Shown: positions 21,827 through 48,969 of the stretch, piece by piece
How the letters are laid out: each line of letters opens with the position of its first letter
Position numbering within the stretch: the stretch's first letter is position 1
Assembly (NCBI GenBank): GCA_963825055.1
Contig: CAWGSK010000034.1
Location: 64,001 to 128,000, forward strand
From: an uncultured Gemmatimonadales bacterium
GTDB taxonomy: Bacteria; Gemmatimonadota; Gemmatimonadetes; Gemmatimonadales; GWC2-71-9
DNA length: 64,000 bases
Direction of reading: 5' to 3'
The notes under the pieces: generated by a model
The model's database searches: none
The model's input: only the letters and a program-made list of their open reading frames with translations
Told to the model about the DNA's origin: nothing
Program-made: the position numbers and the translations under genes

Positions 21827-21947
21827 GCCGGATTCTATCGCGCGTCAGAGGCGACGGTAAGGGTGGTGGCTCTTGCGCGCCCGCGGGCCCACCGGCAAAC
21901 TCAGGTCGGCCCGTCCCCGGCTCACCTCTCCGCAAGGAGCCATTCGC

Positions 21948-22721
21948 ATGGCGCAGCTGACCCTCCGGCCGCTCTCCATCGGTGAAATCCTCGACCTGGC
22001 ATTCACGCTGTACCGCCGCCAGTTCGTCACCCTCTTGTCCATCGCCGTTGTCACCACCGGCCTCCCGCTCATCCTCCAGGTTTACATCCTGTCCGCCGGG
22101 GGATACCTCTATCACCTCGGCATCTCGCTCGCCTATGTGCTGCTGTCGGTGGCGATGAGCGCGCTGGCCACGGCCGCCACGGTCTTCGTGGTCAGCGAGA
22201 GTTACCTGGGCCGGGCCCTTGATGTCGGCGCGGCGTTCGGGCGTGCGCTCCCGCTGCTTGGCCGCGTGGTCCTGACCAGCCTGGCGTTCTCGCTCCTCGT
22301 CGGGCTGGGCGCGATGCTCTTCATCGTCCCCGGCATCATCCTCGCCTGCGGTCTCGGGCTGGCCTTCGTGGTAGTCGTGGTCGAAGGTGCCTCCACCGGA
22401 GAGGCGCTGTCGCGCTCCTGGGCCCTGACCAGGGACTACAAGGGCAAGATGTTCCTGCTCCTTCTCGCCGTCTGGTTCATCATCCTGCTGCCCACGATCA
22501 CAGTCGGGGCCATCGCGGGCCTGGCGATGACCCAGGATCCGCTCACGGCCGGCGACGCGACCGCCGGTGTGCTCGTGGCGGTGGTTGCCGGGCTGGCGCA
22601 GATCGTGGTGTATCCGCTTCTCTACTGCTCCCTGACCGTCGCCTACTACGACCTGCGCGTGCGGAAGGAAGCCTTCGACCTCGAGGTGCTCGAGTCGGCC
22701 CTGCAGCGGGTGGGCGTCTGA
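21948..22721 (+). CDS. Integral membrane protein typical of MoxR/DUF58 clusters
   Basis: AAGGAG RBS; LRPLSIGEILD..F.LYRR, ALSRSWAL, YYDLRVRKEAFDLE. Confidence 0.8.
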   Translation: MAQLTLRPLSIGEILDLAFTLYRRQFVTLLSIAVVTTGLPLILQVYILSAGGYLYHLGISLAYVLLSVAMSALATAATVFVVSESYLGRALDVGAAFGRALPLLGRVVLTSLAFSLLVGLGAMLFIVPGIILACGLGLAFVVVVVEGASTGEALSRSWALTRDYKGKMFLLLLAVWFIILLPTITVGAIAGLAMTQDPLTAGDATAGVLVAVVAGLAQIVVYPLLYCSLTVAYYDLRVRKEAFDLEVLESALQRVGV

Positions 22722-22740
22722 CCGGGCCGGGATTGCACGG

Positions 22741-23370
22741 ATGATCCAGGGTCCCCTGAGCGGGATCGGTGACGATTCCCTGCGGACCGTCATCGATACC
22801 GTGTTCTCCGGGCGTGCCTACGACTGGGTGGAGCCCCCGCGGCCCCTCGCATGGCTCACCCGGACCTGGAACCGGCTCGTGGACTGGATCTTCGGGCTCC
22901 GTGAGGTCAATCCCGTCGCCTACCAGTGGTTGCTGTGGGGGCTCGTCGCCGTGCTGGTTCTGGTATTTGTCCACGGCGGCTACGTCCTGTATCAGACCAT
23001 CCGCGGTGCCGGGGCGCGCGAGGGCGGGCGGGAGCCGGGGGCCGTGCTCGAGGTGCGGGACGAGGCGTGGTATCGCGGGGAAGCCCGGCGTCACGCGGCG
23101 GCGGGACACTACCCCGAGGCGATGCAGGCGGCGTTTCAGTCCCTGATGCAGCGCCTCGAGGCGCGCGGGGCCGTTCGGACTGACCCCTCACGTACCGCGC
23201 GCGAGTACCTGTCCGTGGTGGCGCTCCCCGACGATGAGCGCCGGCGGCTCGCCGGCCTGGTCGGTACGCTGTACGCCTGCGCCTATGCGGGACATCCCTG
23301 CGATGCCGAGACGTATCGCCGGTGGGACGACGAGGCCTTCGGGGCACCGTGGCATGCGACCGCGCACTGA
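22741..23370 (+). CDS. DUF4129-like membrane-anchored protein
   Basis: One TM segment, then A..HAAAGHYPEA...L..RG...DPSRTAREY...YAG motif. Confidence 0.75.
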   Translation: MIQGPLSGIGDDSLRTVIDTVFSGRAYDWVEPPRPLAWLTRTWNRLVDWIFGLREVNPVAYQWLLWGLVAVLVLVFVHGGYVLYQTIRGAGAREGGREPGAVLEVRDEAWYRGEARRHAAAGHYPEAMQAAFQSLMQRLEARGAVRTDPSRTAREYLSVVALPDDERRRLAGLVGTLYACAYAGHPCDAETYRRWDDEAFGAPWHATAH

Positions 23371-24580
23371 AGTCGGGCTGGCCGTCGCGGGACTCGCGGT
23401 CGTCGCGATTCTCGCCGGCCTGGCCGGGGCTGACCGGAACCGCGCGGCCCCGCCGGACAGCCGTCGGAGCAGTTACCTCGCGGGCCCCGAGGGCATCCGG
23501 GGGTATGCGGACGCACTGGAGCGCCTCGGGGTGGACGTGGAGCGCACGCGCTCCAGGCCTGCCCGGCTGAATGCCATGCTGGGTGATGGTGAGATCCCGC
23601 TGCTTGTCATTCTCGATCCAGCGGTGCCGCTCGACCTCGCCGAAGGGGCGACACTGCTCGATTTCACCAGGGAAACCGGCGACCTGCTCCTGGCCGGACC
23701 TGCGGCCGGCGCGGCGATGGCCTGCTTCGGGTATGCGGTGGACCTCCGCAGCCCGGACAGCGTCCCGCTCTACGAGCCCGGCGGACAGCGCATAGTCGGA
23801 TGGGGCCGGGACATGGTGCTGGCGAGATTGAACGATTCCGTGGCCGTCGACTCGTCGGCGCGTTCCGCGGGAGTGGACGCCCGCTGTCTCGTGCCGCCGG
23901 TGGACACGGTCGATACACTGCTGGTCACCTCCGGGGGCCGCACGGTCGCGCTCGCGCTGAGCGTGGACGGCGGTCTGACCGAGGTTGTCCTGGTGGCTGA
24001 CGGGAGCCTCTTCAGCAATCGTCGCCTTCGCGCCGACGATGCGCTGGGGCCGTTCCTGCTCCGGCTTGCCGACCGGCCGCGGGTGGTATTCGACGAGTTC
24101 CACCAGGGGTTTACGGCGGGTGGGTCACTGGCGGGAGCCGTTCTGGCCTGGAGCGGCCGCTCGCCGCTCGGCTGGCTGGGATGGCAACTCGCCGTGACCG
24201 GCCTGCTCGCGATGCTGGCCGCCGCCATCCGCTTCGGTCCGGTGTGGCACGTCATCGTGCGGCGGCGACGTTCGCCGATCGAACATGTGCAGGCCCTGGC
24301 GACGGCGCTGGCTTCCGCCCGGGGAAGCGGCGTCGCGGTCGGGCTCATGGTCCGGGGCCTGCGACGGCGCCTGTCCGCTGCCGGTCACGTCGAGCGCGGC
24401 AGTGCCGCGGAATGGCTTGACCAGATCGCCGATCACGTCCGAAGCCGGTCCGCGCGGGACGCGGTGGCCGCGCTCCAATCACTCATGCAGGACCCGCCCG
24501 CGCCGGACGGCGTGCTGCGGGCCGCTCACGCCGTGGAGGATGTGTGGCAGGATCTCAGCCAGTCAGCCCCGAGGAAATAG
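23354..24580 (+). CDS. DUF4350-like membrane protein
   Basis: SSYLAGPEG.RGY..ALERLG, ADGSLFSN, VVFDEFHQG, RFGP, EHVQALA; ATG 23354 overlaps upstream gene. Confidence 0.75.
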   Translation: MRPRTEVGLAVAGLAVVAILAGLAGADRNRAAPPDSRRSSYLAGPEGIRGYADALERLGVDVERTRSRPARLNAMLGDGEIPLLVILDPAVPLDLAEGATLLDFTRETGDLLLAGPAAGAAMACFGYAVDLRSPDSVPLYEPGGQRIVGWGRDMVLARLNDSVAVDSSARSAGVDARCLVPPVDTVDTLLVTSGGRTVALALSVDGGLTEVVLVADGSLFSNRRLRADDALGPFLLRLADRPRVVFDEFHQGFTAGGSLAGAVLAWSGRSPLGWLGWQLAVTGLLAMLAAAIRFGPVWHVIVRRRRSPIEHVQALATALASARGSGVAVGLMVRGLRRRLSAAGHVERGSAAEWLDQIADHVRSRSARDAVAALQSLMQDPPAPDGVLRAAHAVEDVWQDLSQSAPRK

Positions 24581-25524
24581 CCCGCCAGGGAGAGGTCGCG
24601 CGGACCATCCTGGACCGTCTCGGCCGGGTGGTCCTCGGCCAGCCCGACGCGTTGCGCGACATCCTGATCGCCCTGATCGCGAGGGGGCATGTTCTCCTCG
24701 AAGGCGTGCCGGGCACCGCCAAGACCCTCCTGGTGCGCACCCTGAGTCTCGTGCTCCGCCTCGAGTTCCGGAGGATACAGTTCACGCCGGACCTCATGCC
24801 ATCGGACATCACCGGCGTGAGCCTCCTGACGGGACAGGGAGACTTCCGCTTCCGCCAGGGGCCCGTGTTTGCCGACCTGGTCCTTGCGGACGAGATCAAC
24901 CGCGCGCCCGCCAAGACACAGGCGGCGTTGCTCGAGGCGATGCAGGAGCGCAGCGTCACCGTGGACGGGACCTCCCACCCGCTCAGCCGGTACTTCACGG
25001 TCTTCGCCACGCAGAACCCCATTGAGTTCGAGGGGACCTACCCGCTTCCCGAGGCGGAACTCGACCGGTTCATCATGAAGGTGCTGCTCGACTACCCGGA
25101 TGCGGATACCGAGCAGCACCTTCTGGTGCGCTCGGTGGAGGGGTTCGAGGCCGACGAACCCGCCACGTACGGCGTGTCCGCCGAGGTGAGCCCTGAGGCC
25201 CTCGACGCGCTCCGGTCGGCCAGCCGGGGCGTGCGGGTGGAGGAGACGGTCCTCGCCTACGTGACCCGGGTCGTGCGGGCAACGCGCGAGGCGCCGGCCC
25301 TGACGCTCGGGGCCTCGCCCCGGGCCAGCGTGTCCCTGCTCCGTGCCGCACAGGCCGCAGCGCTCATGGACGGGCGGGAGTACGTGGTCCCGGATGACGT
25401 CAAGGCACTGGCCGCCCCTGTGCTGCGGCATCGCGTGGTGGTGGCGCCCGAACTGGAGCTCGAGGGGATCTCCGCGGACCAGGCGCTCCGCGCCATGCTC
25501 GACCGGATCGAGGTGCCGCGCTGA
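24544..25524 (+). CDS. MoxR family AAA+ ATPase
   Basis: HVLLEGVPGTAKT, RIQFTPDLMPSD, DEINRAPAKTQAALLEAMQE, ATQNPIEFEGTYPLPEA.LDRF, GASPR. Confidence 0.95.
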   Translation: MAGSQPVSPEEIARQGEVARTILDRLGRVVLGQPDALRDILIALIARGHVLLEGVPGTAKTLLVRTLSLVLRLEFRRIQFTPDLMPSDITGVSLLTGQGDFRFRQGPVFADLVLADEINRAPAKTQAALLEAMQERSVTVDGTSHPLSRYFTVFATQNPIEFEGTYPLPEAELDRFIMKVLLDYPDADTEQHLLVRSVEGFEADEPATYGVSAEVSPEALDALRSASRGVRVEETVLAYVTRVVRATREAPALTLGASPRASVSLLRAAQAAALMDGREYVVPDDVKALAAPVLRHRVVVAPELELEGISADQALRAMLDRIEVPR

Positions 25525-26840
25525 TCGTCCTGCCGTCGCGCCGATGGCTGCTCGGAGCAGCCGCGCTGGGGCTCCTCGCCCTCTTCGGCTTCGTCCGTCC
25601 CGCCGCCCTGTCCTGGATGGTGGTGGCGGACGTTGCCTGGCTGGCGGCGTTCGTGGCCGACGCGTTCCTCGCGGTGGGGCCCGACGAGATCACGGTCTCG
25701 CGCCAGGCGCCACCGGCGTTCTCGGTCGGCCGGAGTGTGCCGGTGACGTATCGGTGGCAGAATGCCGGGCGGCATCGCGCGCGGCTGCTGGTGCGGGAGA
25801 TGCTGCCCGGCCCGCTGGGTGGTGCGGAGGGTCCCACGAGGGACCTCGTGCTGGCCGGGCAGGGTGTGGTGGATGAGCGCCTGGACCTGCGGCCGCTCCA
25901 TCGAGGCCGGGGAAGCGGCGGCCGGCTCTCCGTGCGCGCCCTGGGCCCTCTCGGACTCGCGTGGCGGCAGTTCAGCCGCGATCTCCCCTGGACCACTACC
26001 GTCTACCCCACGCTCGAACGCCTGTCGCTTCGCGCGCTGCCATCACAGCAGGCGCGCCGCCGCGAGTCCGGCTTCCGGAACGTCCGGCGCCTCGGCGAGG
26101 GGCGGATCTTCGAGACCCTGCGTGAATGGGTGCCGGGCGATGATACCCGCAGTATCGACTGGAAGGCGACGGCGCGGCGGGGCAAGCTCATGGCCCGGCA
26201 GTATGAGGACGAACGCCGCCAGCAGGTGCTGCTCGTGATCGACGCGGGACGGCTGATGACCGCCGAGAGCGCCGGAACCTCGCGGCTCGAGGCAGCGGTA
26301 GGGGCAGCGCTCAAGCTGGCCTGGACCGTAGTAGAGCATGACGACGACGTGGGTCTCATGGTCTTCGCCGACGATGTCCAGAGCTTCCTGGCGCCGGCCC
26401 GGGGCCGCCGCGCGCTCCGCGGGGTGATGGAAGGGCTGGCGACCGCGGAAGGTCGCCTGGTCGAGAGCGACTACCCTGCCGCCCTCGCATACCTCGCTGC
26501 GCGCAACCGGAAGCGTGCGCTCACGGTGCTCTTCACCGATGTCATCGACCGGAGCGCCAGCGAGGCGCTGGTGGCGCGGGTGGGCTCACTCCGCCCCCGG
26601 CACCTGCCGCTCGCGGTCGTGCTCCGGGATCCGGCGCTCGAGATGGTGGGTACCCGCCACGCAGGGACGGTCATGGAGGCCTATGAGCGAGCCGCGGCCG
26701 AGGAGTTGCTGTTGGCGCGCGAGGCGGCGCTGCTCGACATGCGCCGGCGCGGTGTCCTGGTGCTGGATGTCCCGCCGGCCCGCGCCGCGGAGGCCGTGGT
26801 GGACCAGTACGCGCAGCTGAAGCGGCGCGGGGTGCTCTGA
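25521..26840 (+). CDS. DUF58 / vWA-like domain protein
   Basis: FETLREWVPGDDTRSIDWKATARR, VLLVIDAGRLM, VLFTD; frame open back to CTG 25521 (CTGA overlap with MoxR stop). Confidence 0.88.
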   Translation: MIVLPSRRWLLGAAALGLLALFGFVRPAALSWMVVADVAWLAAFVADAFLAVGPDEITVSRQAPPAFSVGRSVPVTYRWQNAGRHRARLLVREMLPGPLGGAEGPTRDLVLAGQGVVDERLDLRPLHRGRGSGGRLSVRALGPLGLAWRQFSRDLPWTTTVYPTLERLSLRALPSQQARRRESGFRNVRRLGEGRIFETLREWVPGDDTRSIDWKATARRGKLMARQYEDERRQQVLLVIDAGRLMTAESAGTSRLEAAVGAALKLAWTVVEHDDDVGLMVFADDVQSFLAPARGRRALRGVMEGLATAEGRLVESDYPAALAYLAARNRKRALTVLFTDVIDRSASEALVARVGSLRPRHLPLAVVLRDPALEMVGTRHAGTVMEAYERAAAEELLLAREAALLDMRRRGVLVLDVPPARAAEAVVDQYAQLKRRGVL

Positions 26841-27472: not shown

Positions 27473-27592
27473 CAGGCAAGTAGCAAGTAGCAAGTGGCAA
27501 GTAGCAAGTGGCAAGTAGCGAGTAGTGAGTAGCGAGTGGCGAGTGGCGAGTGGTGAAGTGCACTGCTTGCCATTCGCTATTTCGCTATTCGC
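27471..27592. repeat. 7-mer tandem repeats (AAGTRGC/GAGTRGY) with a short inverted copy (YATTCGC)
   Basis: AAGTAGC AAGTAGC AAGTGGC AAGTAGC AAGTGGC AAGTAGC GAGTAGT GAGTAGC GAGTGGC GAGTGGC GAGTGGT, then CATTCGC..TATTCGC, between convergent genes. Confidence 0.85.
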
Positions 27593-28442
27593 TCTCCCTC
27601 CCCATTGCATCCCGCACCGCATCCCCCAGCAGCGTACTCGCCACCACCACCAGCACCAGCGCCGCGCCCGGGAAGAGCGCCCCCCAGGGGGCGTTCACGA
27701 GGGTATCGCGCCCCGAGGCGATCATGTTGCCCCAGGACGGGGCAGGAGGCTGTACGCCGAGCCCGAGGAAGGAGAGCCCTGCTTCGAGCATGATCGCGTT
27801 ACCGAGGCCGAGCGCGGCGGCCACGATGACCGGGGTGAGGGCATTGGGGATGACGTGGCGGAACAGCACCCGTGTTCGCCCGGCGCCGAGCGCGCGCGCG
27901 CCGTCCACGAAGGGACGTGCGGCCAGCGACTGCACCTCTCCGTGCACCAGGCGCGCGACCGACATCCAGCCGGTGAACCCCAGGACCAGGACGACGAGCA
28001 GCGCGCTGGGCTGCCACAGCGCTGCCAGGAGGAGGAGGAGCACGACACGGGGGAGGGCGAGCGCGAAGTCCGTGAACCCGAGCAGCACGGTCCCGACACC
28101 GCGCTGCCAGAGGCCCGCCACCGCTCCGATCACGAGGCCGAGCGTGGCGGAGATGAGCACCGCGAGGCCGCCCACCACGAGCGACACCCTGGCGCCATAG
28201 ACCAGCCGGGTCCAGAGGTCGCGGCCGAAACGGTCGGTGCCGAGCAGGTGGAAGGCGCCGAAGGGATCGGTGGCGAACGGCGCGAGGAATCGCGTCGCCA
28301 CCACATCGTGCTGGGCCGCGGGGTCACCCGCCGTGATCAGCGGCGCCAGCAGCGCTGCTGCCACGGCGAGTCCGAGCACGATGGCGCCGGCACGCCCCCG
28401 CCCGTCCTTCAGGACACGTCGCAGGAGCGAGGTCTCACGCAT
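27585..28442 (-). CDS. Peptide/nickel-type ABC transporter permease (OppC/DppC-like)
   Basis: HLLGTDRFGRDLWTRLVYGARVSL, FVDGARALGA..RVLFRHVIPN, EAGLSFLGLGVQPP.PSWG. Confidence 0.93.
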   Translation of the reverse strand: MRETSLLRRVLKDGRGRAGAIVLGLAVAAALLAPLITAGDPAAQHDVVATRFLAPFATDPFGAFHLLGTDRFGRDLWTRLVYGARVSLVVGGLAVLISATLGLVIGAVAGLWQRGVGTVLLGFTDFALALPRVVLLLLLAALWQPSALLVVLVLGFTGWMSVARLVHGEVQSLAARPFVDGARALGAGRTRVLFRHVIPNALTPVIVAAALGLGNAIMLEAGLSFLGLGVQPPAPSWGNMIASGRDTLVNAPWGALFPGAALVLVVVASTLLGDAVRDAMGRESE

Positions 28443-29406
28443 GCTGGTCCCGGACGCGCGGGTCCACACGGGTGACCAGGAGGTCGGCGAGCAGGTTTCC
28501 GGCGACCACCAGGACCGCGCTCACCGTCGTCGCCGCCATGACGACCGGATAGTCCCGCGCCTGCACCGCCTCCACCAGGATCCGGCCGACCCCGGGCCAG
28601 GCGAAAATCACCTCCACGAATACCGCGCCCGAGAACAGCGCGGGAAGCGAAAGCCCCAGCAGCGTGACGACCGGGACCATGGCATTCCGGAACACATGGC
28701 GCCAGAGGATGCGCCGGGGCGAGAGCCCTTTGGAGCGCGCGATCACCACGAAGGGCAGGCCGCGCACGTCGAGCACCGCCCCGCGGACGAACCGCGCGAC
28801 GCCGCCGATGCCGATGAGCGTCAGGGTGAGAAGTGGGAGGGCGAGATGCCGGAGGCGGTCGGCCACGCGCTCCCATCCGGCCAGGAAATCCGCGTCCAGC
28901 CCCGCGGCGCCGAATGCCGGCAGCCATCCGAGCAGGTAGGTGAACAGCATCACCAGCATGAGGCCGAGCCAGTAACTCGGCATGGCGAAGAGCGTCACGG
29001 TAGAGACGGACAGCGATGTATCGAGGGTGGATCCTCCACGCGCACCCTGGATCACCCCGACCAGGATGCCGATCAGGTAGCTCGCCAGGAGTGACAGGCC
29101 GACCAGGACGACCGTGGCCGGCCAGGCCCGGCCAAGCATCGCGGCCACCGGGCGCCCCGTGGCAATGCTGCGTCCCCAGTCGCCCCGCAGAAATCGGCCT
29201 ACCCAGGTGACGAACTGGGCCGGAAGCGGGCGGTCGAGACCGAGGGCATGCCGCTGCTCCTCCACCTGTGTGGCGCTCGCGCCGGGCCCGAGGAGGCGCG
29301 CGACCGGGTCGCCGGGCGCGACCTGAAGCAGGGCGAAGGTGAGCGCGACGACCCCGAGGACCACCGCGAGTCCGGCCAGCAGCCGGCGCGTGAGGAAGGA
29401 GAGCAT
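28435..29406 (-). CDS. Peptide/nickel-type ABC transporter permease (OppB/DppB-like)
   Basis: APGDP, LGLDRPLP.QF, ARSKGLS..RILWRHVFRNA, EVIFAWPGVG, RDYPVV. Confidence 0.93.
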   Translation of the reverse strand: MLSFLTRRLLAGLAVVLGVVALTFALLQVAPGDPVARLLGPGASATQVEEQRHALGLDRPLPAQFVTWVGRFLRGDWGRSIATGRPVAAMLGRAWPATVVLVGLSLLASYLIGILVGVIQGARGGSTLDTSLSVSTVTLFAMPSYWLGLMLVMLFTYLLGWLPAFGAAGLDADFLAGWERVADRLRHLALPLLTLTLIGIGGVARFVRGAVLDVRGLPFVVIARSKGLSPRRILWRHVFRNAMVPVVTLLGLSLPALFSGAVFVEVIFAWPGVGRILVEAVQARDYPVVMAATTVSAVLVVAGNLLADLLVTRVDPRVRDQHA

Positions 29407-29448
29407 GCCGCAATCTCAGGACAAGCGGCCGGCGGCGCCAGCACGGGT

Positions 29449-29493
29449 GACCGCCCTGTCCGTCCCGTCCGCCCTGTCCGCCCTGTCCGCCCT
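29449..29493 (+). repeat. Tandem 9-mer GTCCGCCCT x5 (two variants)
   Basis: GACCGCCCT GTCCGTCCC GTCCGCCCT GTCCGCCCT GTCCGCCCT in the divergent intergenic region. Confidence 0.85.
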
Positions 29494-29510
29494 GTGACTA
29501 ATATCTATCT

Positions 29511-30959
29511 GTGTTCCGATCCCTCCTCCTCGTCATCCTGGTGGCGGGCGCCGCGTGCGCGGACCCGGGCCAGCGCCGGCCCGGAACCGTGCTCTTCGCC
29601 TCGGGCGCCGACCTCCAGAGCATGAACCCCCTCATCACGCTGCACCCGCTGGCCCGCCAGGTCCAGCGCTACGTGCTGCTGACCACGCTCGTGCGATACG
29701 ATTCCACCCTGCGCACGGAACCGTACCTGGCACGCAGGTGGGAGTGGTCCGCCGACGGGCGGCGCCTCACGATGCACCTTTTCGATGGTCTCCGGTGGCA
29801 GGACGGCGTGCCCACGACCGCGCGCGACGCCGCCTTCACCCTGAACGCCGCGCGCGACCCCGTGACCGGCTACCCCCGCCAGCGCGAACTTGACGGCATG
29901 GACACTGTCATCGCGGTCGACGACTCGACACTGTCGATCGCATTCCGCGCCGCGCCCGGCGGACTCCCCGACGTCCTGACCGACCTCGCCGTCGCGCCCG
30001 CGCACTGGCTCGACTCCGTCCCGCGGGATCGGATGCGCCGCGCCGCCTGGAACCAGGCTCCCGTCGGGAACGGGCCCTTCCGCTTCATCACGCACGACCC
30101 GAACCGCCGCTGGGTCTTCGTGGCCGATCCGCGGTTCCCTGCCGCGCTGGGCGGACCCCCGCACGTCGAGCGCCTCGTGGTGGCGATCGTGGACGAGCCG
30201 ACCACCAAGCTCGCCGCGCTCGCCGCAGGGGAGCTGGACTTCGCGGGGATCAACCCGGCCCACGCTTCGTTCGTGGAACATGACCCGCAGCTCGCCGTCC
30301 TCAGTTATCCGCTGATCTTCACCTACGGCCTCATTCTCAATACCCGGCGCCCCCCGTTCGACGATCCTGTGGTGCGCCAGGCCATTTCGCTGGCAGTCAA
30401 CCGGCAGGAGATCGTGCAGGGGTACCTCTATGGCTTCGGCACTCCGGCCTATGGTCCGGTTCCACCCGGCCTTCCGGGTGCCCTCACGCCGGAACCGGTG
30501 CCGTGGGATCCGGATTCCGCCCGGAAACTGCTTGCGGGACGGGACGTTCACTTCGACCTGCTCACCGTCGGCAGCGGTGAAGCAGCGCTTGAACAGATGG
30601 TGCAGGCCCAGCTTGCGAAGGCCGGCATCACGGTCACGATCCGCCAGATGGAACTCTCGGCGTTCCTGGACCGGGTGTATGCCGCCGACCCGGCATTTTC
30701 CGCGGCCGTGACCGGCATCCCGGGTGATCCCGGCCTGGGCTACCTCTCGCCGCTCGCCGCCGTGGCAGGCATACCCGATGGTGGGGGCCCGCCCGCCTTG
30801 CAGGAGCGCTTCCGTAAATCGACCGCGGTAGTTTTCCTCTACCATGCGCGGGGCGTGCAGGGCATGAACCGCCGGATGCTGGACGTGCGGATGGACCTGC
30901 GCGGCGAGCTGGCCACCGTCAGCGACTGGCGGACCACCGGCAGGGCGGCTGGACCATGA
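29511..30959 (+). CDS. Family 5 ABC transporter substrate-binding lipoprotein
   Basis: Lipobox GAAC; PYLARRWEWS.DG..LT.HL..GLRWQDGVPTTARD, PVGNGPFRF, PFDDPVVRQAI..AVNRQEI. Confidence 0.9.
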   Translation: MFRSLLLVILVAGAACADPGQRRPGTVLFASGADLQSMNPLITLHPLARQVQRYVLLTTLVRYDSTLRTEPYLARRWEWSADGRRLTMHLFDGLRWQDGVPTTARDAAFTLNAARDPVTGYPRQRELDGMDTVIAVDDSTLSIAFRAAPGGLPDVLTDLAVAPAHWLDSVPRDRMRRAAWNQAPVGNGPFRFITHDPNRRWVFVADPRFPAALGGPPHVERLVVAIVDEPTTKLAALAAGELDFAGINPAHASFVEHDPQLAVLSYPLIFTYGLILNTRRPPFDDPVVRQAISLAVNRQEIVQGYLYGFGTPAYGPVPPGLPGALTPEPVPWDPDSARKLLAGRDVHFDLLTVGSGEAALEQMVQAQLAKAGITVTIRQMELSAFLDRVYAADPAFSAAVTGIPGDPGLGYLSPLAAVAGIPDGGGPPALQERFRKSTAVVFLYHARGVQGMNRRMLDVRMDLRGELATVSDWRTTGRAAGP

Positions 30960-31952
30960 CCGGGCCGCTGTGCATCAGGGCGCCGCTCCGGCTCGACCTC
31001 GCGGGGGGCTGGACCGACGTCCCTCCATTCAGCGCCGAAGTGGGCGGCAGCGTCGTGAATGTGGCCATCGGCCTCTCGACGACCGTGCGCTGGCGGCCGG
31101 AGGGCAGGACGGTCCGCCTCTCGTCACGGGACCTTGAGGCAACCCTGGAGGCTCCCTCCGCGGACATGCTTCCGCACGGGGGCCCCCTTGAGCTGGTGGC
31201 TGCGGCAGCCCGGCGTCTCGGCCTGCCGCCGGGCTCTCTTGAAACCGCTTCCGAGGCCCCCCCAGGCTCGGGCCTCGGAAGCAGCGGGTCCCTTGGCGTT
31301 GCCCTGGTGCACGCGATGCGGCAGGCCCGCGGCGAGGCGGTGACGGCGATGGAGGCCGCGGAGACAGCGTGGTTGATCGAAACCGCCGATGCGGGTATCC
31401 CGGGTGGCCGGCAGGACCAGTACGCGGCGGCCCTGGGAGGCGTTCATCATTTCCGGTTCCGCGATCCCGGAGGTGGAGGTGGTCCGGCTCACCCCCGGAC
31501 GCGGGGTTCTGGATGCGCTGGCATCCCGTCTCGTCCTCTGCTACACCGGCACGTCGCGGATCTCGGGCCGGATGATCGCCCGCGTCGTCGAGGGATGGGA
31601 GGCGCGGCACGACCCCGTGGTGCGCGCGCTGCATGGCATGGTGGATGTCGCCGGGCGCATGAGCGACGCCGTCCGCTGTGGGGACCTGGCGGCGGTCGGT
31701 GCACTGCTGACGGAGAACTGGTCCCACCAGCAGGCGCTCGATCCCGGCATGCGGACGGATGCAATGGCGCACCTGGAACGCGCGATGCTGGACGCCGGCG
31801 CCCTGGGCGGGAAGGCGGCTGGCGCCGGGGCCGGCGGCTGCATGTTCTTCCTTGGCCCGGAGGATCCGGGGCCGCTGCACGCCGCCGCGCGAAGCGCTGG
31901 TGTCCGTGTCCTGCCGGTCACCTTGAGCATGGAGGGAGTACACGCGTGTTGA
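30956..31952 (+). CDS. GHMP-family sugar kinase (HddA/fucokinase-like), split by one extra base near 31466
   Basis: PLRLDLAGGWTDVPPF, PPGSGLGSSG, GGRQDQYAAALGG in one frame; YTGTSRISG, NWSHQQALDP, GGKAAGAGAGG in the next frame; junction GAT CCC G GAG. Confidence 0.88.
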
Positions 31953-34651
31953 CGGCTGAAGAGCTGGGCGCCCGGCGGGAGGCCGTGGCGGCGTCCGCCG
32001 ACCTGACCGAACTCTACGGGGCCCTGAAGCGGCGCGCCGCCCACTGGCGGGCGGACCGCCCAGCCGTTCCCCGGCGCAAGGCCATTCTTTCGACCACCGG
32101 CGGGGTCTGTCCGCGTGACGGCTCAGCACTCCGGTTCGATCCACGTGCCGGTGGCGCCCATGTGTGTCCGGTGTGCCACGAGCGCGTGAGCGACCAGCGG
32201 CACGAGGACTGGTGGGTCCGCTTCCAGCATCTGTGGATGGCCGAGCGGACCGCCGAACAGGCCGCAGTGGGTGCCATCGGGGAGGACCGGGAAGCACTCG
32301 CCGCCGCGCGGGAGGTACTGGAAGAGTACGCCGGGGTGTACCATGCCCTTCCCAACCGGGACAACGTCCTCGGCCCGACCCGCCTGTTCTTCTCGACCTA
32401 TCTCGAGTCCATCTGGCTCGGTAACTATCTCTCGGCGGCAGTCCTGCTCCGCGAAATGGACGCGCTGGATGACGCGGCATCCGATGCCGTGAGCGGTGTG
32501 GCCGATGCCGCGGCGCACCTGATCGGGGAGTTCAACGAGGGGCTCTCCAACCGGCAGACGTGGCACGCCGCCGCGCTGACCGCGGTGGCCGCCTGGTTCG
32601 GCGACGAGGACCTGGCCCGCGATGCGATCGAATCACGAACGGGACTGATCGGCCACCTGCTGGAGGGTTTCGGCGACGACGGCCTGTGGTACGAAGGGGA
32701 GAACTACCACCTCTTCGCGCTGCGTGGGCTCCTCACCGGCCTCTCCTGGGCCCGGTACATGGGCGCGGACATCATGGAGGACGCGGACCTCGCCGCCCAT
32801 GTTCATCTCGCCTTGCGCGCCCCGATGCTGACCGCACTTCCTGACCTGACCTTCCCCGCGCGGAAGGATGCCCGCTTCGGTGTTTCCCTCGCCCAGCCGA
32901 TGTACGCCGAACTCTGGGAAACCGGGCGGGCGTGGAGCCGCGACGAGGAGCGGGAACGGCTCGAGCGGTGGCTGGTGTCGCTCTACGGGGCGCCCGCGCC
33001 GGGTCCGGCGACATTCGACTCCTGGCTGCACGAGGCGGGTGAGGAGGGCGCCGGCAAGGGGCGGACGGGCCTTTCCTGGTGGATGCTGCTCGAAATGCTG
33101 CCGGATCCTCCCGGTGGGGAGCCGTGGGAAGGGGAGACGGTGCTCCTTCCTTCACAGGGGTTCGCGATCCTGCGCGAGGGGCAGCGATATGCCGGCATCG
33201 AGGCCGGACCGACCGGCGGGGGCCACGGCCACCCCGACCGGCTGAACCTGATCGTGCATGCGGCCGGCCGGTACTGGCTGCCGGACCTGGGGACCGGCTC
33301 CTATGTGAGCCCGGATCTCTTCTGGTATCGTTCGAGCCTGTCCCACAACGCGCCCCGGCTCGATGGCCGCTCACAGGAATCCGGCCGGGCGAGTTGCGAG
33401 ATGTTCGACATGCAGGATGGGTGGAGCTGGGTGCGGGGACGTTTCGGCGAGATGACCCGTACGGTGATCGCAGCCCCTGAGTACCTGCTCGATATCGTCG
33501 AACTGGCCGCGGAACTCCCGCATGTCCTGGAGCTGCCATGGCACCTGATGGGAGACGTCACGGCGCCGGGCAGCAGGGGGCCGGCGGAGATCAACAGTGA
33601 GTTTGCCCGCGATGCCGAGCGACTCGTTGGTGGAGAGGCGGGTGGAGGGGTCAGGCTCGACGCCGAAGCGGATGGGGCACACGCCCGTCTCATCCTGTCC
33701 GGCGGTGAAGTGCTTCGGGCGGTGGGGCCGGGCATCCCGGGGGGGCCGCCGGCCCCGTTCTTCGTGCAGCGCGGGGAGGGGCGCCATGTCCGCTTCGTCA
33801 ACGTGATCGGGCTGGATCCGGCACAGCCGGTCGCCGCGCTCCGCACCGATGGTGACGTGGTGGAGGTGGACCTGCCTTCGGGCACGGACCGGCATGCCCC
33901 GCAGGCCCTGGGCTGGCAGGTCTCCCGCGCGAATAAGACATGGCGGCTCGGTGGTCCGCTTCCGGACCAGGGCCCGATCCAGACGCTCTTCTCGCGTACC
34001 GTCACGCAGGTCAGCGAGGCGCAGGTTCCATGGGTGAGCGATCCGCCGCCGCTCGATGGAACCATGGAGGGCTTTCCGGGCACCGTACGGATTGCGCTGG
34101 ATCATGACGACCAGTACCGCCGCACGGAGGATCCGTGGGAAGGGCCCGGGGAGTTCTCCGCGGGCGCGGAACTGGCATGGAACGAAGGGGGCCTGTACGC
34201 GGCCGTTGATGTCCGGAAGCCGGAACTGGTTTTCCGCCCCCCCGACGACACCCCGCTCGGGCTGGACAATGAAACGGACGATATCAACAGTGACGGGCTG
34301 CAGGTGTACGTGACCATCGACGACATCACGCGCGGGTGGCTGGTCGTGCCCGACGTGTCAGCGGACAGCCTCCGGGTCCAGCCGGTCTCCGGCATGGACA
34401 CGCCCGGCGTCTCGCTCGAGGGCCGGTGGTCCGCGACGGATGTTGGCTATCGTGTCACGATGGCCCTCCGCCCGGAGGATATCGAGTTCGGGCATGGCGA
34501 GCGGCTCGGGTTCGAACTGGTGGTGAACGAAATGCGTGAGGGGCGGGCGCGGCGGGCCGGACAGCTCGTCTGGACCGGTCGTGGCGGATGGGCCTACCTG
34601 CGCGGGGATCGTGAGGATCCGGCCAACTTCGGGACGCTCGAGCTGGTATGA
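31946..34651 (+). CDS. Heparinase II/III-like protein (alpha/alpha toroid plus beta-sandwich) with C-terminal CBM9/DOMON-like domain
   Basis: GGAGGGAG RBS then GTG 31946; SNRQTWH, DGLWYEGENYH, GGGHGHPDRLNL, WYRSSLSHNAP; WNEGGLY..V.V...DGLQVY...GFELVVN sugar-binding-like tail. Confidence 0.8.
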   Translation: MLTAEELGARREAVAASADLTELYGALKRRAAHWRADRPAVPRRKAILSTTGGVCPRDGSALRFDPRAGGAHVCPVCHERVSDQRHEDWWVRFQHLWMAERTAEQAAVGAIGEDREALAAAREVLEEYAGVYHALPNRDNVLGPTRLFFSTYLESIWLGNYLSAAVLLREMDALDDAASDAVSGVADAAAHLIGEFNEGLSNRQTWHAAALTAVAAWFGDEDLARDAIESRTGLIGHLLEGFGDDGLWYEGENYHLFALRGLLTGLSWARYMGADIMEDADLAAHVHLALRAPMLTALPDLTFPARKDARFGVSLAQPMYAELWETGRAWSRDEERERLERWLVSLYGAPAPGPATFDSWLHEAGEEGAGKGRTGLSWWMLLEMLPDPPGGEPWEGETVLLPSQGFAILREGQRYAGIEAGPTGGGHGHPDRLNLIVHAAGRYWLPDLGTGSYVSPDLFWYRSSLSHNAPRLDGRSQESGRASCEMFDMQDGWSWVRGRFGEMTRTVIAAPEYLLDIVELAAELPHVLELPWHLMGDVTAPGSRGPAEINSEFARDAERLVGGEAGGGVRLDAEADGAHARLILSGGEVLRAVGPGIPGGPPAPFFVQRGEGRHVRFVNVIGLDPAQPVAALRTDGDVVEVDLPSGTDRHAPQALGWQVSRANKTWRLGGPLPDQGPIQTLFSRTVTQVSEAQVPWVSDPPPLDGTMEGFPGTVRIALDHDDQYRRTEDPWEGPGEFSAGAELAWNEGGLYAAVDVRKPELVFRPPDDTPLGLDNETDDINSDGLQVYVTIDDITRGWLVVPDVSADSLRVQPVSGMDTPGVSLEGRWSATDVGYRVTMALRPEDIEFGHGERLGFELVVNEMREGRARRAGQLVWTGRGGWAYLRGDREDPANFGTLELV

Positions 34652-35847
34652 ACCGCCCCGATGATCCCGCGGTTGCCGGTTTTACCTCCACGGGGAGCAA
34701 GCACCCACGGCTCCTCTACGGTGTCGAACCGATGGTCGCGGTGGAGGACGGGCTGCCGGTCCGGGTGGCGCGAGCCCGGGGTGCCATGGTGACCGACAAC
34801 GAGGGCCGGGAATACCTCGACTTCATCATGGCGCTGGGTGCGGTGGCCCTGGGGTACGGGCATCCGGACGTGACCCGCGCGGCAGTGCGCGCCGTGGAGG
34901 AGGGTGGAGTGGGACCGCTGGCCCCCGTGCTCGAGGAGCAGGTGGCCGCACGGCTGGTCACGCTGTTGCCACCGGTCGAGCGGGTGCGGTTCCTCAAGAC
35001 CGGGGCGGAGGCGGTGGCGGCCGCGGTGCGGCTCGCGCGCGCCTGCACTGGGCGGGATCTGGTCATCGGGTGTGGCTATCACGGATGGCTCGACTGGTGC
35101 AGCGACGGTCCGGGCGTGCCCAGTGCCACCCGATCCCTGTTCACGCGGATCCCCTTCAACGACCCGCAGTCCGCCCGGGAGGCCATCCGCGCCGCCGGTG
35201 ACCGGCTCGCCTGCGTCGTCCTCGAACCGGTGGTGGAAGCCTGGCCCGACCCGGAGTGGCTGCGTATCGTGCGGGAGGAGACCGCGCGGACAGGCGCGCT
35301 TCTCGTGCTGGACGAAATCAAGACGGCGTTCCGGGTGCACCGGGGCGGGGCAGCCGGGCGGTTCGGGATTCCGGCGGACCTGGTCGTGGTGGGCAAGGCG
35401 CTGGCGAACGGCTTCCCGCTCGCGGCAGTGGGGGGGCGCGCTTCGGTCATGGAAGCCGTGGGCCGGGCATGGATTTCATCCACGCTGGCCACGGAATGGG
35501 TTTCCCTGGCCGCCGCCCTCGCGACGCTTGATGTCATGGCATCGGTGGACCTTCCCGCCGCCCTCGAGCGCTCCGGCCAGGCCTGGTGCGACGGCCTGGC
35601 GTCCCGGGCCGGCAGCGGACCGCTGGCGTCCGTGCGCGGGGTTCCGGCGATGTCCCTGTGTGTGTGGGCGACTGTCGAGTCCGGGAACCGGGTGGTCCGC
35701 GCCGCCGCCCGCCATGGCCTGCTGCTCAAGCGCGATGCCTACAACTTCACCTCGCTCGCGCATGGGATGGACGAGGTGACACGGGCCCTGTCTCTGTTCG
35801 ACCTGGCGCTCGAGGATGCAGGGAGGGAGCGGACCAGTGCTGGTTGA
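34648..35847 (+). CDS. Class III PLP aminotransferase (GSA aminomutase-like)
   Basis: ARGA.VTD.EGREYLDF, RFLKTGAEAV.AAVRLAR, GYHGW, LDEIKTAFR, GKALANGFPLAAVGG. Confidence 0.9.
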   Translation: MNRPDDPAVAGFTSTGSKHPRLLYGVEPMVAVEDGLPVRVARARGAMVTDNEGREYLDFIMALGAVALGYGHPDVTRAAVRAVEEGGVGPLAPVLEEQVAARLVTLLPPVERVRFLKTGAEAVAAAVRLARACTGRDLVIGCGYHGWLDWCSDGPGVPSATRSLFTRIPFNDPQSAREAIRAAGDRLACVVLEPVVEAWPDPEWLRIVREETARTGALLVLDEIKTAFRVHRGGAAGRFGIPADLVVVGKALANGFPLAAVGGRASVMEAVGRAWISSTLATEWVSLAAALATLDVMASVDLPAALERSGQAWCDGLASRAGSGPLASVRGVPAMSLCVWATVESGNRVVRAAARHGLLLKRDAYNFTSLAHGMDEVTRALSLFDLALEDAGRERTSAG

Positions 35848-36646
35848 CGTCCACGCCCATTTCTGGCACGACCGCTCGCCGCGCGCCGACTGGCAGGAAG
35901 TGAACGCCAGCCGGCTTCGCTGGGGCGAGCGTATCGGGATCACCTGGCACGTGGCCTCGATCCTCGGCAGCTGGGGACGGGACTCCCCCACGTACTTCCC
36001 ATCCCCCGCGGACGTCTCCCACGGCAATGCCGTGATGCGGCAACTGGCCGCCGCGCACCCCGGGCAGGTGCTCGGGTACGTTACAGTCAACCCGAATTAC
36101 CCCGAGCATGCGCGGGACGAAGTGCGGGCTGGTGTCGAGGGTGGCATGGTCGGTATCAAGCTCGCCGCGAGCCGCCGCGTAACGGATCCGCTCGTGGACG
36201 GTATTGCGGGCCTGGCCCGCGAGCACGGCCTGCCGGTGCTCCAGCACATCTGGCAGCATCGCCGGCGCGACTGGCCCGGGCAGGAGGCATCGGACGGCGC
36301 CGAGCTGGCCGTCCTCGCTGGTCGGCACCCCGACGTTGCCTTCATCCTCGCGCACCTGGGTGGGGGAGGCGACTGGCTGCACACGCTGCATGCCGTGCGA
36401 CGGGTCGACAACGTATTCATCGACCTCTCCGGCAGCGGCGCGGACGGCGGAATGCTCGAGGCGGCGATCGATGCCGCGGGCGCGGGCCGCCTGCTGTGGG
36501 GCTGCGATCTCACCATCTGCACCGGCCTTGCCAAACTCCGCCGGCTGGAGGGCCTGCTCGATCCCGAATCGTTCGAGGGTGTCCGCTGGCGGAATGCGGC
36601 GGCGATTTTCCCTGAAGGAGCCTTCAGCGGCGGAGCCCGGCGATGA
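35837..36646 (+). CDS. Amidohydrolase_2-type TIM-barrel metallohydrolase
   Basis: VDVHAH, GIKL, PVLQH, ILAHLGG, LLWGCD; GTG start at 35837. Confidence 0.88.
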   Translation: MLVDVHAHFWHDRSPRADWQEVNASRLRWGERIGITWHVASILGSWGRDSPTYFPSPADVSHGNAVMRQLAAAHPGQVLGYVTVNPNYPEHARDEVRAGVEGGMVGIKLAASRRVTDPLVDGIAGLAREHGLPVLQHIWQHRRRDWPGQEASDGAELAVLAGRHPDVAFILAHLGGGGDWLHTLHAVRRVDNVFIDLSGSGADGGMLEAAIDAAGAGRLLWGCDLTICTGLAKLRRLEGLLDPESFEGVRWRNAAAIFPEGAFSGGARR

Positions 36647-37443
36647 GCCTGGTCGACGTGAATGCATTCATCGGGGCGTACCCGTGGCGACGCGTGCCCG
36701 GGACGGCGCCTGCCGACCTGCTCGCAGCGATGGACCGGACGGGGATCGACCAGGCCTGGGTAAGCCACCTGCCCGGTGTGTTCTGGCGTGACCCGATGGA
36801 GGGGAACGGCTTCCTGTTCGACCTCGCCCGCGCGGAACCACGCTTCTCGGCAGTGCCCGCGATCCACCCCGGCCTGGCCGGCTGGCGCGACGCGCTGCGC
36901 GTGGCCCGTGAGTCCGGCGCTCCCGCCGTGCGATGTGACCCTGCCTTCCACGCCCTGGCGCCGGCCGGGACGGAGATGCACGAACTGGCCCGCGCCTGCG
37001 GCGATGCGGGGATGCTCCTCATGATGGCCGTGCGGCTCGAGGACGCCCGACAGCGCCATCCGCGCGACACGGCCCCGGAACTCTCCGGTGCCGACCTGCG
37101 TGGCCTGCTGCGCTGCGATGACCGGCTGCGCCTGCTCGTTACGCACGCCGACCGGGCTCTCATCCATGAGGTCCATTTCGGCAGCACCACGACCGAAGCG
37201 TCGCGCGTGTGGTGGGACATCTCGTGGCTCTGGGGCCCTCCCGAGGAGCATCTGGCACGGCTGGTGCATGAGATCGGGACGGACCGCCTGGTGTTCGGCA
37301 CCGGACAGCCCCTGCGCCTTCCGGAATCGGGGGTAGCCCGGCTGGAGCTGACCGACCTGGACGACGTGGCCGTGAGCGCCATCGGCTCGGGCAACGCCCG
37401 GGCCGCCGCCGGGATTTCCTCCGCCAGGACTGGACGGCAGTGA
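36643..37443 (+). CDS. Amidohydrolase-fold protein with degenerate metal site
   Basis: VDVNAFIG in place of DxHxH; LLAAMDRTGID, LLVTH, RLVFGTGQP; ATGA overlap. Confidence 0.8.
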   Translation: MSLVDVNAFIGAYPWRRVPGTAPADLLAAMDRTGIDQAWVSHLPGVFWRDPMEGNGFLFDLARAEPRFSAVPAIHPGLAGWRDALRVARESGAPAVRCDPAFHALAPAGTEMHELARACGDAGMLLMMAVRLEDARQRHPRDTAPELSGADLRGLLRCDDRLRLLVTHADRALIHEVHFGSTTTEASRVWWDISWLWGPPEEHLARLVHEIGTDRLVFGTGQPLRLPESGVARLELTDLDDVAVSAIGSGNARAAAGISSARTGRQ

Positions 37444-38918
37444 AACGACTCTCCCTGATCATCGCTGCGCTCCTCGCCCTCGGGTCCGCTCGCCTCCCCG
37501 GGCAGGCCCAGCCCATCGCGATCACCCACGTGACCCTCATCGACGCGACCGGCGCCCCGCCGCTGCCGGACCGGACCGTGGTCGTCCGGGACGGCAGGAT
37601 CGTCGCCGTGGAGCCCTCGAGCATCTTCCACGTGCCTGATGGCGCCACCGTGGTGGATGGGACCGGGCGATACCTGATTCCGGGCCTGTGGGACATGCAT
37701 GTGCACATGTCGACGGGATCCCTGCCGCCATATTCGGCCGGGCCGGAGCGCGTTGTCGACAACTGGCGGTATTTCTTCCCGCTGCTCGTCGCACACGGGG
37801 TCACCGGCGTCAGGGACATGTCGGGCGATCTCGACCTGCTCGTCTCCTGGCGGGAGGCCGTGCGCGGGGGTGAGCGGATTGGTCCACGCATGGTGGTAAC
37901 GGGGTGGAAGCTGGGGGATCACCAGCCGGTCGTCGCGGGCGCCCCGTATCCGGTTGAGACCGCCGCGGATGTGGTCGCCTCGGTCCGGCTGCTCAAGCAG
38001 CACGGGGCGGACTTCGTGAAGGTCGACTGGTTCGAACCGTCGCTGTATCCGGCCCTGCAGGATGCCACGCGGCGTGCCGGGTTGCGGTTCGTCGGTCATG
38101 TGTCGCCCGGTATCAACGCCGGTGTGGCGGCGCGGCTGGGCCAGCACAGCATCGAGCACCTCGATGGAATCCAACTCGCCGTCTCGTCCAATGAGGCGGC
38201 CCTTCGGCGGGAGTACGTCGACGGCCCGGGCTGGTGGCGGCGGTACCTCATCCGGATGCACCTCTCCAGCCGGGACCGCTGGCTGCTCGACTGGCAGCGG
38301 CGCCTCAACGGCACGCTGGACACTGCCAGGCTCCGCGCGCTGCTCGGCACGTTCCGGGCGGCCGGCACCTGGGTGGTACCCACCCTCACGGAGCTCCGGG
38401 ACATCAAGTCGCTTCCGGCGCCCGCACCGGACTCCGCCGCCCGGGCGCCCTATACGCCGCCGCCGCGGGCAGTCCGGCAGCAGACCTACTTCGCGCTGGA
38501 CTCAGCCGTAGCATCCGCAACCTTCGCCGAGGAAGTCCGCCTGGTTGGCGCGATACATGAAGCCGGCGTACCGATGCTCGCGGGTACCGACACACCAGGG
38601 CTGCGCCGGCTGCCCGGGTTCAGCCTCGCCGACGAACTGGAACTCCTGGTGCAGGCAGGCTTCACCCCCATGGAGGCGCTCCAGTCGGCCACCGTCGAGC
38701 CGGCCCGCTTCCTTGGCGCCCTCGATTCGATGGGAACCGTCGCGACGGGGAAGGTGGCGGACCTGGTACTGCTCGATGCCGATCCGCTGAAGGACATCGC
38801 CAACGTCGGCTCGGTGCATGCGGTGATCCTGCAGGGGCGGTTGTTCGACCGGAACGCCCTCGACGCCATGCTTGCCGGCGTGCGGACGCTCGTGGAGGGC
38901 TGGCGCGGGGCGCGCTGA
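37440..38918 (+). CDS. Exported amidohydrolase family protein
   Basis: Signal peptide; IPGLWDMHVH, GVTGVRDM, SIEH, AGTD, ALQSAT..PARFLG, GKVADLVLLDADPL.DI. Confidence 0.9.
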   Translation: MKRLSLIIAALLALGSARLPGQAQPIAITHVTLIDATGAPPLPDRTVVVRDGRIVAVEPSSIFHVPDGATVVDGTGRYLIPGLWDMHVHMSTGSLPPYSAGPERVVDNWRYFFPLLVAHGVTGVRDMSGDLDLLVSWREAVRGGERIGPRMVVTGWKLGDHQPVVAGAPYPVETAADVVASVRLLKQHGADFVKVDWFEPSLYPALQDATRRAGLRFVGHVSPGINAGVAARLGQHSIEHLDGIQLAVSSNEAALRREYVDGPGWWRRYLIRMHLSSRDRWLLDWQRRLNGTLDTARLRALLGTFRAAGTWVVPTLTELRDIKSLPAPAPDSAARAPYTPPPRAVRQQTYFALDSAVASATFAEEVRLVGAIHEAGVPMLAGTDTPGLRRLPGFSLADELELLVQAGFTPMEALQSATVEPARFLGALDSMGTVATGKVADLVLLDADPLKDIANVGSVHAVILQGRLFDRNALDAMLAGVRTLVEGWRGAR

Positions 38919-43667: not shown

Positions 43668-43718
43668 AGGGCGGACAGGGCGGACAGGGCGGACAGGGCG
43701 GTCGATAATAGGGCGGTC
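43668..43718 (-). repeat. Tandem 9-mer GTCCGCCCT/GACCGCCCT (4 contiguous plus 1) directly before the MATE start
   Basis: Plus strand AGGGCGGAC x3, AGGGCGGTC, gataat, AGGGCGGTC. Confidence 0.85.
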
Positions 43719-45429: not shown

Positions 45430-47235
<1,806 letters not shown>

Positions 47236-47249
47236 GTTGTCATGGGATA

Positions 47250-47323: not shown

Positions 47324-47479
47324 TTGCGGGGGGTGGAATGTCGCCACGGCCGGGGGTGGAGTCAACTCTGCCCCACCGGGGGCGCGCGGTACATCCGCCT
47401 TCCTCAGAACTTCAGACTTTCCTCAGGATCGTTCTCCTATCCTGCGGGCATGACGACGCGTCCCCTGTGGGAGGTTCCT

Positions 47480-48965: not shown

Positions 48966-48969
48966 TCTT

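Follow-up and report, generated by a model that had tools for sequence, protein, structure and literature searches.

In a window of 64,000 nucleotides from the genome of an uncultured Gemmatimonadales bacterium (contig CAWGSK010000034.1; assembly 87% complete), we find a module of eight genes that encode two ATP-binding cassette (ABC) permeases, a family-5 solute-binding protein, a GHMP sugar kinase, a PL17-fold lyase-like protein, a class III aminotransferase and a pair of Amidohydro_2 proteins, which we call a and b. The module is real and not a chance arrangement, because the same gene order recurs in three families of the order. Our preferred reading, to which we give about an even chance, is that it imports a small acidic N-acylated amino-sugar oligosaccharide and dismantles it in the cytoplasm; the presumed substrate could be, for example, a hexosaminuronate-containing fragment of a microbial cell-wall or capsule glycan. 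All coordinates below are positions in the window (Table 1).

The arrangement in the window is compact: all six plus-strand junctions overlap, and the permeases diverge from the binding-protein gene across 104 bases. No sigma-70-like promoter was seen, and terminator-like sites show no excess. Of 60 relatives, 47 match the lyase, a small number only weakly. The 38 loci fetched around the lyase keep one constant gene order and include the aminotransferase 36 times, amidohydrolase a 34 times, b 33 times and the kinase 29 times; several of the misses are contig ends. The best 80 of at least 567 confirmed GTDB relatives of amidohydrolase b are all from Gemmatimonadota, mostly Gemmatimonadales; in the 80 loci centred on b, wherever there is enough flank, a is present in 73/73, the aminotransferase in 60/62, the lyase in 39/48, the kinase in 37/46 and the binding protein in 31/41.

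The genes are also lost together. Among 120 Gemmatimonadota genomes, each at least 90% complete and 84 of them from the order (the tallies include the unpublished genomes G014 and G095), orthologues of the lyase, the binding protein and the aminotransferase occur in an identical set of 58, and b occurs in 59, with one weak match besides. Carriers make up 42/55 genomes of one family (f1), 15/28 of a second (f2) and 1/1 of a third, compared with 0/36 in nine other families, so that the module is present in 58 of the 84 sampled genomes of the order and missing from 26. The kinase is found in 41 of the 42 f1 carriers. In f2 it lies away from the locus, yet it is present in 13/15 carriers versus 0/13 non-carriers, and all ten f2 copies that we read have the Trp motif described below. 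Two f1 non-carriers retain a kinase remnant next to trmJ (L169:6850-7836 and L173:160-1152) in which the sugar-binding motifs are lost and the sugar pocket is eroded; in a quick tree their branch lengths are 1.09 and 1.27, whereas the four module kinases closest to them have 0.29-0.53. Because the kinase follows the module even from an unlinked position and decays after module loss, it is tied to the module by more than adjacency. These counts come from related genomes and hence are not a statistical test. An earlier note on this DNA had named a failure of co-conservation as one result that would undo its proposal; instead, the genes are kept together and lost together. The unlinked f2 kinase (loci L156, L159 and L167) often follows a gene of the GT20 trehalose-6-phosphate synthase family and precedes an M20 peptidase and an RNase H.

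The kinase gene is interrupted in the given sequence. One extra base near 31471 places its halves in different frames. Aligned with 28 intact orthologues, the halves meet with nothing missing between them, and the N-terminal half reads in frame into the lyase gene to give a spurious open reading frame (ORF) of 1231 amino acids. An independent short-read soil contig (333 nt, depth 6.2, spanning 31238-31552) does not have the extra base at 31471; this is a single contig, and soil contigs cover parts of the window only. The assembly also contains poly-A/poly-T debris (46.8-49 kb), and of 40 gene places that we probed, 4 are broken across frames, the kinase accounting for two of them. Given the independent contig, the 28 intact relatives and the other assembly errors, the extra base is most likely an assembly error, in which case the lyase would start at 31946 and be 901 amino acids long. 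For the same reasons we reject a kinase-lyase fusion protein as a frameshift artefact.

The best overall match of the kinase is HddA/WcbL (E 2e-76). However, an intact kinase orthologue scores 137 bits against the HddA NCBIfam cut-off of 600, and the third position of the HddA GGGTD motif is W/Y/F rather than Gly in 28/28 module kinases. The two Gly-type HddA copies that we examined sit in separate glycan loci with an adjoining nucleotidyltransferase; nucleotidyltransferase and glycan biosynthesis genes are not among the recurrent neighbours in our 118 loci. The excerpts of PMC11982464 give the fucose pocket of FKP as R592, W599, D601, T602, E751, Q761 and D762. Six of these seven residues are kept in the module kinase (R12, W19, D21, E142, Q153 and D154 pair with FKP R592, W599, D601, E751, Q761 and D762), while T602 is Val. 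HddA/WcbL lacks the stacking Trp that the module kinase has, and FKP carries a pyrophosphorylase domain that the module kinase has neither fused to it nor as a partner: a fucose pyrophosphorylase (PF07959) is not fused, and a search of the genome (87% complete) gave none. These features point to a subfamily between HddA and fucokinase, HddA-like overall with a fucokinase-type sugar pocket, whose substrate is likely to be a neutral, unphosphorylated sugar. A link between HddA-type kinases and class III aminotransferases in hygromycin B biosynthesis could not be confirmed.

The structure model of the 901-residue protein (mean predicted local distance difference test score, pLDDT, 90.6) has Alg17c as its best Foldseek match. 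It shows the toroid plus beta-sandwich architecture, aligning with AlgL17 (9irq) at Z 31.0 over 587 residues (root-mean-square deviation, rmsd, 3.0), and its C-terminal domain aligns with the CBM9 structure 1i82 at Z 21.3 over 179 residues (rmsd 2.4). All of the top structural matches are uronate-glycan enzymes. In PL17, according to the excerpts of PMC8600288, N201/H202 neutralise the carboxylate, Y450 serves as base and Y258 as acid, and the metal sits in a His/Asp/His site. The corresponding acid Y254, base Y453 and metal site H429/D447/H467 are invariant in 37/37 sequences of the module protein; of the neutralising pair, N202 is kept and His202 is replaced by Arg203, again in 37/37. Alg17c residues Q146, N149, R260 and R438, which we take to be substrate contacts, are here Ser, Leu, variable and deleted, respectively. 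The protein thus shares its fold, acid/base Tyr, Asn and metal site with the PL17 oligoalginate lyases (Alg17c 4nei/4ojz, AlgL17 9irq, AlyA3 7bjt), but differs from them in its 16-18% identity, the Arg in place of His202, the deleted Arg438 loop, an extra N-terminal Cys motif, the C-terminal CBM9 domain and the absence of a signal peptide. The N-terminal motif has three invariant Cys (C55, C74 and C77) and an almost invariant D58, which suggests a zinc ribbon. With the frameshift-fused ORF as query, the NCBIfam oligoalginate lyase model (cut-off 1400) gives 22 bits. The protein may behave as an exolytic lyase or epimerase, but it falls outside PL17, and it probably represents a new polysaccharide lyase family. 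Among the best 120 of 3231 homologues found with the lyase profile there is no functional name beyond heparinase II/III, the ESM Atlas returned generic names only, and the plasmid matches are short and distant.

The aminotransferase resembles several known enzymes and falls under every NCBIfam cut-off. Its best NCBIfam match is PRK06209 (202 bits, cut-off 486), and the HemL model TIGR00713 gives 195 bits (cut-off 527). Its profile matches the aminoglycoside C-6' enzyme 7lld with an E of 2e-66, with glutamate-1-semialdehyde (GSA) aminomutases scoring higher. GSA aminomutases, the PRK06209 family and the aminoglycoside C-6' aminotransferases GenB and NeoN have the class III fold in common with it (template modelling score 0.85-0.89), and the pyridoxal phosphate (PLP) lysine is invariant. 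The GSA aminomutases shown in the comparison have Met where the module enzyme has an invariant Lys in its DEIKT motif.

Amidohydro_2 enzymes bind metal through an HxH, Lys, His, His, Asp pattern. Subunit a has the full set (H8, H10, K110, H139, H175 and D226) in 33/33 sequences. Subunit b has no HxH and carries Thr/Ser at the strand-8 position in 31/31, and it retains invariant motifs of its own. The two are fused, a first, in five haloarchaeal plasmid proteins and three unnamed proteins. In 80 distant metagenome loci, retrieved with 11 of 56 distant sequences, a adjoins b in 67, or in 47/52 where both flanks are present. From these patterns, a and b are probably one complex of a catalytic a and a non-catalytic b. 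None of the 80 distant loci contains the module kinase, binding protein or aminotransferase, and two contain a distant lyase-fold gene. The 83 neighbour proteins of distant pairs that we chose for inspection include sulfatases, glycosidases, Gfo/Idh/MocA, DegT and creatininase proteins as well as products of unrelated genes. Three of the five haloarchaeal fused loci have a class III enzyme that scores 304-333 bits on the module profile, compared to 256 for the top solved GSA aminomutase. One metagenome contig (L213:2940-8050) has an a/b pair directly preceded by a distant heparinase-like gene, whose product carries CxxC motifs at its N-terminus; Opp permeases lie nearby, and the arrangement is a possible independent version of the module. 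Two others (L180:8001-10052 and L181:8001-10011) have a distant subunit b without a, directly before anmK.

Just one of the six core proteins encoded on the plus strand begins with a hydrophobic stretch: the binding protein (29/32 sequences, compared to 0/37, 0/33, 1/31, 0/36 and 0/30 for the other five), whose Cys16 is invariant across 32 sequences. Because of this difference, we place the five enzymes in the cytoplasm. The earlier note had proposed uptake followed by cytoplasmic breakdown or recycling: the confinement of the signal peptide to the binding protein agrees with uptake and processing in the cytoplasm, while recycling of the peptidoglycan type finds no backing, since AnmK is present in 59/60 genomes irrespective of the module; a role as a substitute for AnmK is rejected on that ground. 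The substrate class that the note suggested, an N-acylated amino-sugar oligosaccharide or glycopeptide, is still the likeliest candidate. The same note had reported no ATPase gene, and indeed the window holds no gene for an ABC ATPase. Nor did the 118 loci yield an OppD/F-level match, only 11 distant ATPases at 27-30%, so the locus does not itself encode a complete Opp/Dpp importer. The genome has one OppD/F pair alongside three permease sets and four family-5 binders, and the simplest reading is that the transporter would share this single ATPase pair. In one f2 genome, a gene pair that we recognised from its translation as SusC/SusD-like lies between the binding protein and the lyase (L065:12542-17351); it could provide an outer-membrane step.

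Eda shows no co-distribution with the module: it is found in 9/40 carriers and 3/18 non-carriers, leaving out two genomes of undecided carrier status. Because Eda was not found in 31/40 carriers, a non-canonical sink is needed, and we reject the Eda route. Neither Eda nor KduI was found in the present genome. Like AnmK substitution, the classical uronate route does not fit. Downstream of b, many f1 genomes carry a trio encoding a protein of the dihydrodipicolinate synthase (DHDPS) family, a protein of 400 amino acids and an enolase of the OSBS/NAAAR family. The trio is present in 42/42 loci with 7.5 kb of downstream sequence, a set biased to f1, and a GH38 gene comes next in 17/42. The 400-residue gene occurs in 27/120 genomes, all of them carriers; its product has no Pfam, NCBIfam or PDB sequence match and, going by its motifs, may resemble dihydroorotate dehydrogenase. 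In the present genome we found none of the three accessory enzymes, no DHDPS-family gene at all and no match to GH38. The present genome therefore has a short form of the module, which helps define the minimal core.

Two further genes travel with the module without belonging to it. A TrmJ methyltransferase gene lies between the lyase and the aminotransferase in 21/48 loci. It is kept in genomes that lost the module, and in the present genome it lies on another contig, ahead of the cytochrome c and molybdopterin-type genes which relatives have after the cluster; we therefore reject it as a module member. The third amidohydrolase of the window, an Amidohydro_1 protein, is rejected as a core member because it has a signal peptide, has many paralogues in the genome and is downstream in 0/70 related loci centred on b; the 38 loci around the lyase gave just two paralogue matches at 27%. 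The seven-gene plus-strand unit of the earlier note had counted this passenger. Its genes and positions otherwise stand, apart from the frame split in the kinase, and so does its description of overlapping plus-strand genes divergent from two permeases.

Table 1. Genes of the module and its downstream passenger, with positions in the 64,000-nucleotide window.
Gene product	Position	Strand	Basis and remarks
OppC/DppC-type ABC permease, core	27585..28442	-	PF00528 E 5e-24, residues from 28430; retained in relatives
OppB/DppB-type ABC permease, core	28435..29406	-	PF00528 + PF19300; retained in relatives
Family-5 (cluster C) solute-binding protein, probable lipoprotein, core	29511..30959	+	PF00496 E 2e-68
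GHMP anomeric sugar kinase, core	30956..31952	+	PF00288 + PF08544, split over two frames
PL17-fold lyase/epimerase-like protein, 901 aa, core	31946..34651	+	PF07940; structure model
Class III PLP aminotransferase, GSA-aminomutase-like / PRK06209-like, core	34648..35847	+	PF00202 E 1e-43
Amidohydro_2 subunit a, core	35816..36646	+	PF04909; GTG 35837 is a possible start
Amidohydro_2 subunit b, core	36643..37443	+	no HxH, no strand-8 Asp
Exported Amidohydro_1 protein, passenger	37440..38918	+	overlaps operon end; signal peptide

The start of the OppC/DppC-type permease was placed by its overlap with the OppB stop. A 9-bp tandem repeat occupies intergenic spaces at 15280-15387, 29451-29495 and 43668-43701, the second of these copies sitting between the divergent permease and binding-protein starts; it has 57 dimer matches genome-wide and is common to unrelated soil contigs too. 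Upstream, 20060-26840 encodes what we take, from the translations, to be an RDD/SpoIIM-like membrane protein, two small membrane proteins, another membrane protein, a MoxR-type AAA ATPase and a DUF58-like protein. On the other side, 45500-49700 is low-quality assembly, marked by extreme skews and by long runs of poly-T and poly-A, and the genes beside it (49794-52314) appear split into frames.

How might the module work? We infer every substrate and every reaction below from what is established, namely the genes, their order and co-loss, the location signals, the folds and the residues. The family-5 binding protein and the two permeases would import the oligosaccharide, borrowing the single OppD/F pair. 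The PL17-fold enzyme would then use beta-elimination to cut beside a uronate: Tyr453 would be the base and Tyr254 the acid, and Asn202/Arg203 would neutralise the carboxylate. The amidohydrolase pair would strip the N-acyl group. Ring opening would give an alpha-amino aldehyde resembling glutamate-1-semialdehyde. In what is the weakest step, the class III enzyme might transaminate it or shift its amino group, replacing the reductase of the alginate pathway and recovering nitrogen. Finally, the kinase may phosphorylate C1 of a released neutral sugar, and in the 27 of 58 carriers that have them, the aldolase-like, uncharacterised and enolase-family enzymes may use the carbon skeleton. The company that a/b pairs keep elsewhere (glycosidases, sulfatases, Gfo/Idh/MocA and DegT proteins) and the GH38 gene after the cluster support this reading.

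Several observations weigh against it. The activity of the lyase-like protein is not certain, because His202 is Arg and other subsite residues differ, and the same fold also yields an epimerase (6hzn). The best solved matches of the binding protein are peptide and nickel binders, and among its close solved relatives none names a ligand. Class III aminotransferases of such a type also occur in biosynthetic glycan loci. In the 87%-complete genome, genes for fucose pyrophosphorylase, KduI, Eda and the DHDPS family were all looked for and not found. The presence of TrmJ inside the operon means that position alone is no proof of function, and kinship among the genomes makes the co-loss counts overstate the association.

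Other explanations account for parts of these data. It is unlikely, though worth weighing, that the module salvages glycopeptides: O-glycosylated Ser/Thr peptides would be imported, the PL17-fold enzyme would eliminate the sugar from the amino acid, the pair would cleave the resulting dehydro-amino-acid amide and the kinase would capture the sugar. The peptide class of the transporter, carboxylate-site residues unlike those of PL17 and the general lack of Eda would all fit, as would a RidA gene after the fused amidohydrolase in Haloprofundus and the M20 peptidase after the unlinked kinase in several f2 genomes. However, the top structural matches of the enzyme all act on uronate glycans, sugar-binding family-5 proteins exist (the 5hm4 group), and we know of no PL17-fold member that acts on peptides. 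It also strikes us as improbable that the cell salvages or remodels its own envelope glycan, a reading in which imported fragments would be epimerised or trimmed, re-aminated and re-activated through a sugar-1-phosphate for reuse. HddA/FKP-type kinases supply nucleotide-sugar synthesis, PRK06209 is the best NCBIfam match of the aminotransferase, dermatan sulfate epimerase shares the lyase fold and a catabolic sink was not found in the present genome; yet the frequent neighbours in the 118 loci include no nucleotidyltransferase or glycosyltransferase, the true HddA copies lie apart in glycan loci that do have the nucleotidyltransferase, and 26 of the 84 sampled genomes of the order do without the module.

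That the module degrades a small amino-sugar natural product resembling an aminoglycoside, aminocyclitol or opine, with the class III enzyme deaminating a terminal carbon, seems to us quite improbable. The aminotransferase profile does score high on aminoglycoside C-6' enzymes such as 7lld, family-5 opine binders are among the matches of the binding protein, and the haloarchaeal fused-pair loci hold DegT enzymes and an AAC(3)-family gene in addition to their close class III enzymes. Against this, GSA aminomutases outscore the aminoglycoside enzymes, order-wide retention suggests an abundant substrate, and such compounds are, to our knowledge, mostly without the uronate that the PL17-fold enzyme needs. 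Very little probability attaches to the idea that the genes form a mere conserved neighbourhood, kept or lost jointly through adjacency alone: a single event can delete adjacent genes, and TrmJ and the third amidohydrolase do ride in or at the end of the operon, but the unlinked kinase tracks the module and decays once left behind, and TrmJ persists after module loss and is elsewhere in the present genome. Hardly credible at all is an ordinary alginate or glycosaminoglycan utilisation locus. The nearest structures are PL17 oligoalginate lyases, but structural identity to them is about 16-18%, the positions of His202, Gln146, Asn149, Arg260 and Arg438 are changed or deleted, the genome shows neither of the KduI and Eda genes, and the aminotransferase and amidohydrolase pair would have no role there.

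Set against known systems, the module is a real, uncharacterised variant of the theme of import followed by a cytoplasmic lyase. In the alginate system of Sphingomonas A1, a binding protein and permeases feed an intracellular exolytic lyase, as we propose here. Systems of that type continue with a reductase, KdgK and Eda, whereas the module has an aminotransferase, an amidohydrolase pair and an anomeric kinase, and its transporter is of the Opp class without an ATPase of its own; a further difference from PL17 systems is that neither Eda nor KduI was found in the present genome. The nearest chemistry is the OngB/OngC/KdgK pathway for 2-acetamido-2-deoxy-gluconate, in which, according to the excerpts of PMC12017989, an acidic amino sugar loses its acyl group to an amidohydrolase and its amino group to a second enzyme, as we likewise propose here. 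OngB is described in these excerpts as a D-aminoacylase type with a Cys/His/His site, in contrast to the Amidohydro_2 pair, and compared with the pathway given there the module adds a class III aminotransferase and a lyase and has no KdgK or Eda. The earlier note did not recognise the combination as a named pathway, and we likewise found no description of the cluster in the open-access full-text literature, a search that did not cover supplements. Carbohydrate-active enzymes of Gemmatimonadota are treated in bulk only in the excerpts of PMC11890756, PMC9426454 and PMC11316326.

Members of the Gemmatimonadales occur widely in soil, and they are poorly represented in culture. The module's presence in about two-thirds of the sampled genomes of the order points to a common substrate. 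It also offers four biochemical targets: the probable new lyase family, an uncharacterised amidohydrolase pair that extends from bacteria to haloarchaea, a kinase subfamily placed midway from HddA to fucokinase, and the binding protein, the ligand of which would identify the pathway. It is tempting to speculate, though we consider it rather unlikely, that the module embodies a new catabolic logic for hexosaminuronate cell-wall glycans, combining a new lyase family (PL17 fold, Asn/Arg neutraliser, zinc ribbon and CBM9) that would free an unsaturated N-acyl amino-uronate, an amidohydrolase partnered by a pseudo-enzyme that would deacylate it, and a GSA-type aminomutase or transaminase that would act on the alpha-amino aldehyde so formed, in place of a reductase. 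If this were true, Gemmatimonadales would mine nitrogen from bacterial glycans in soil.

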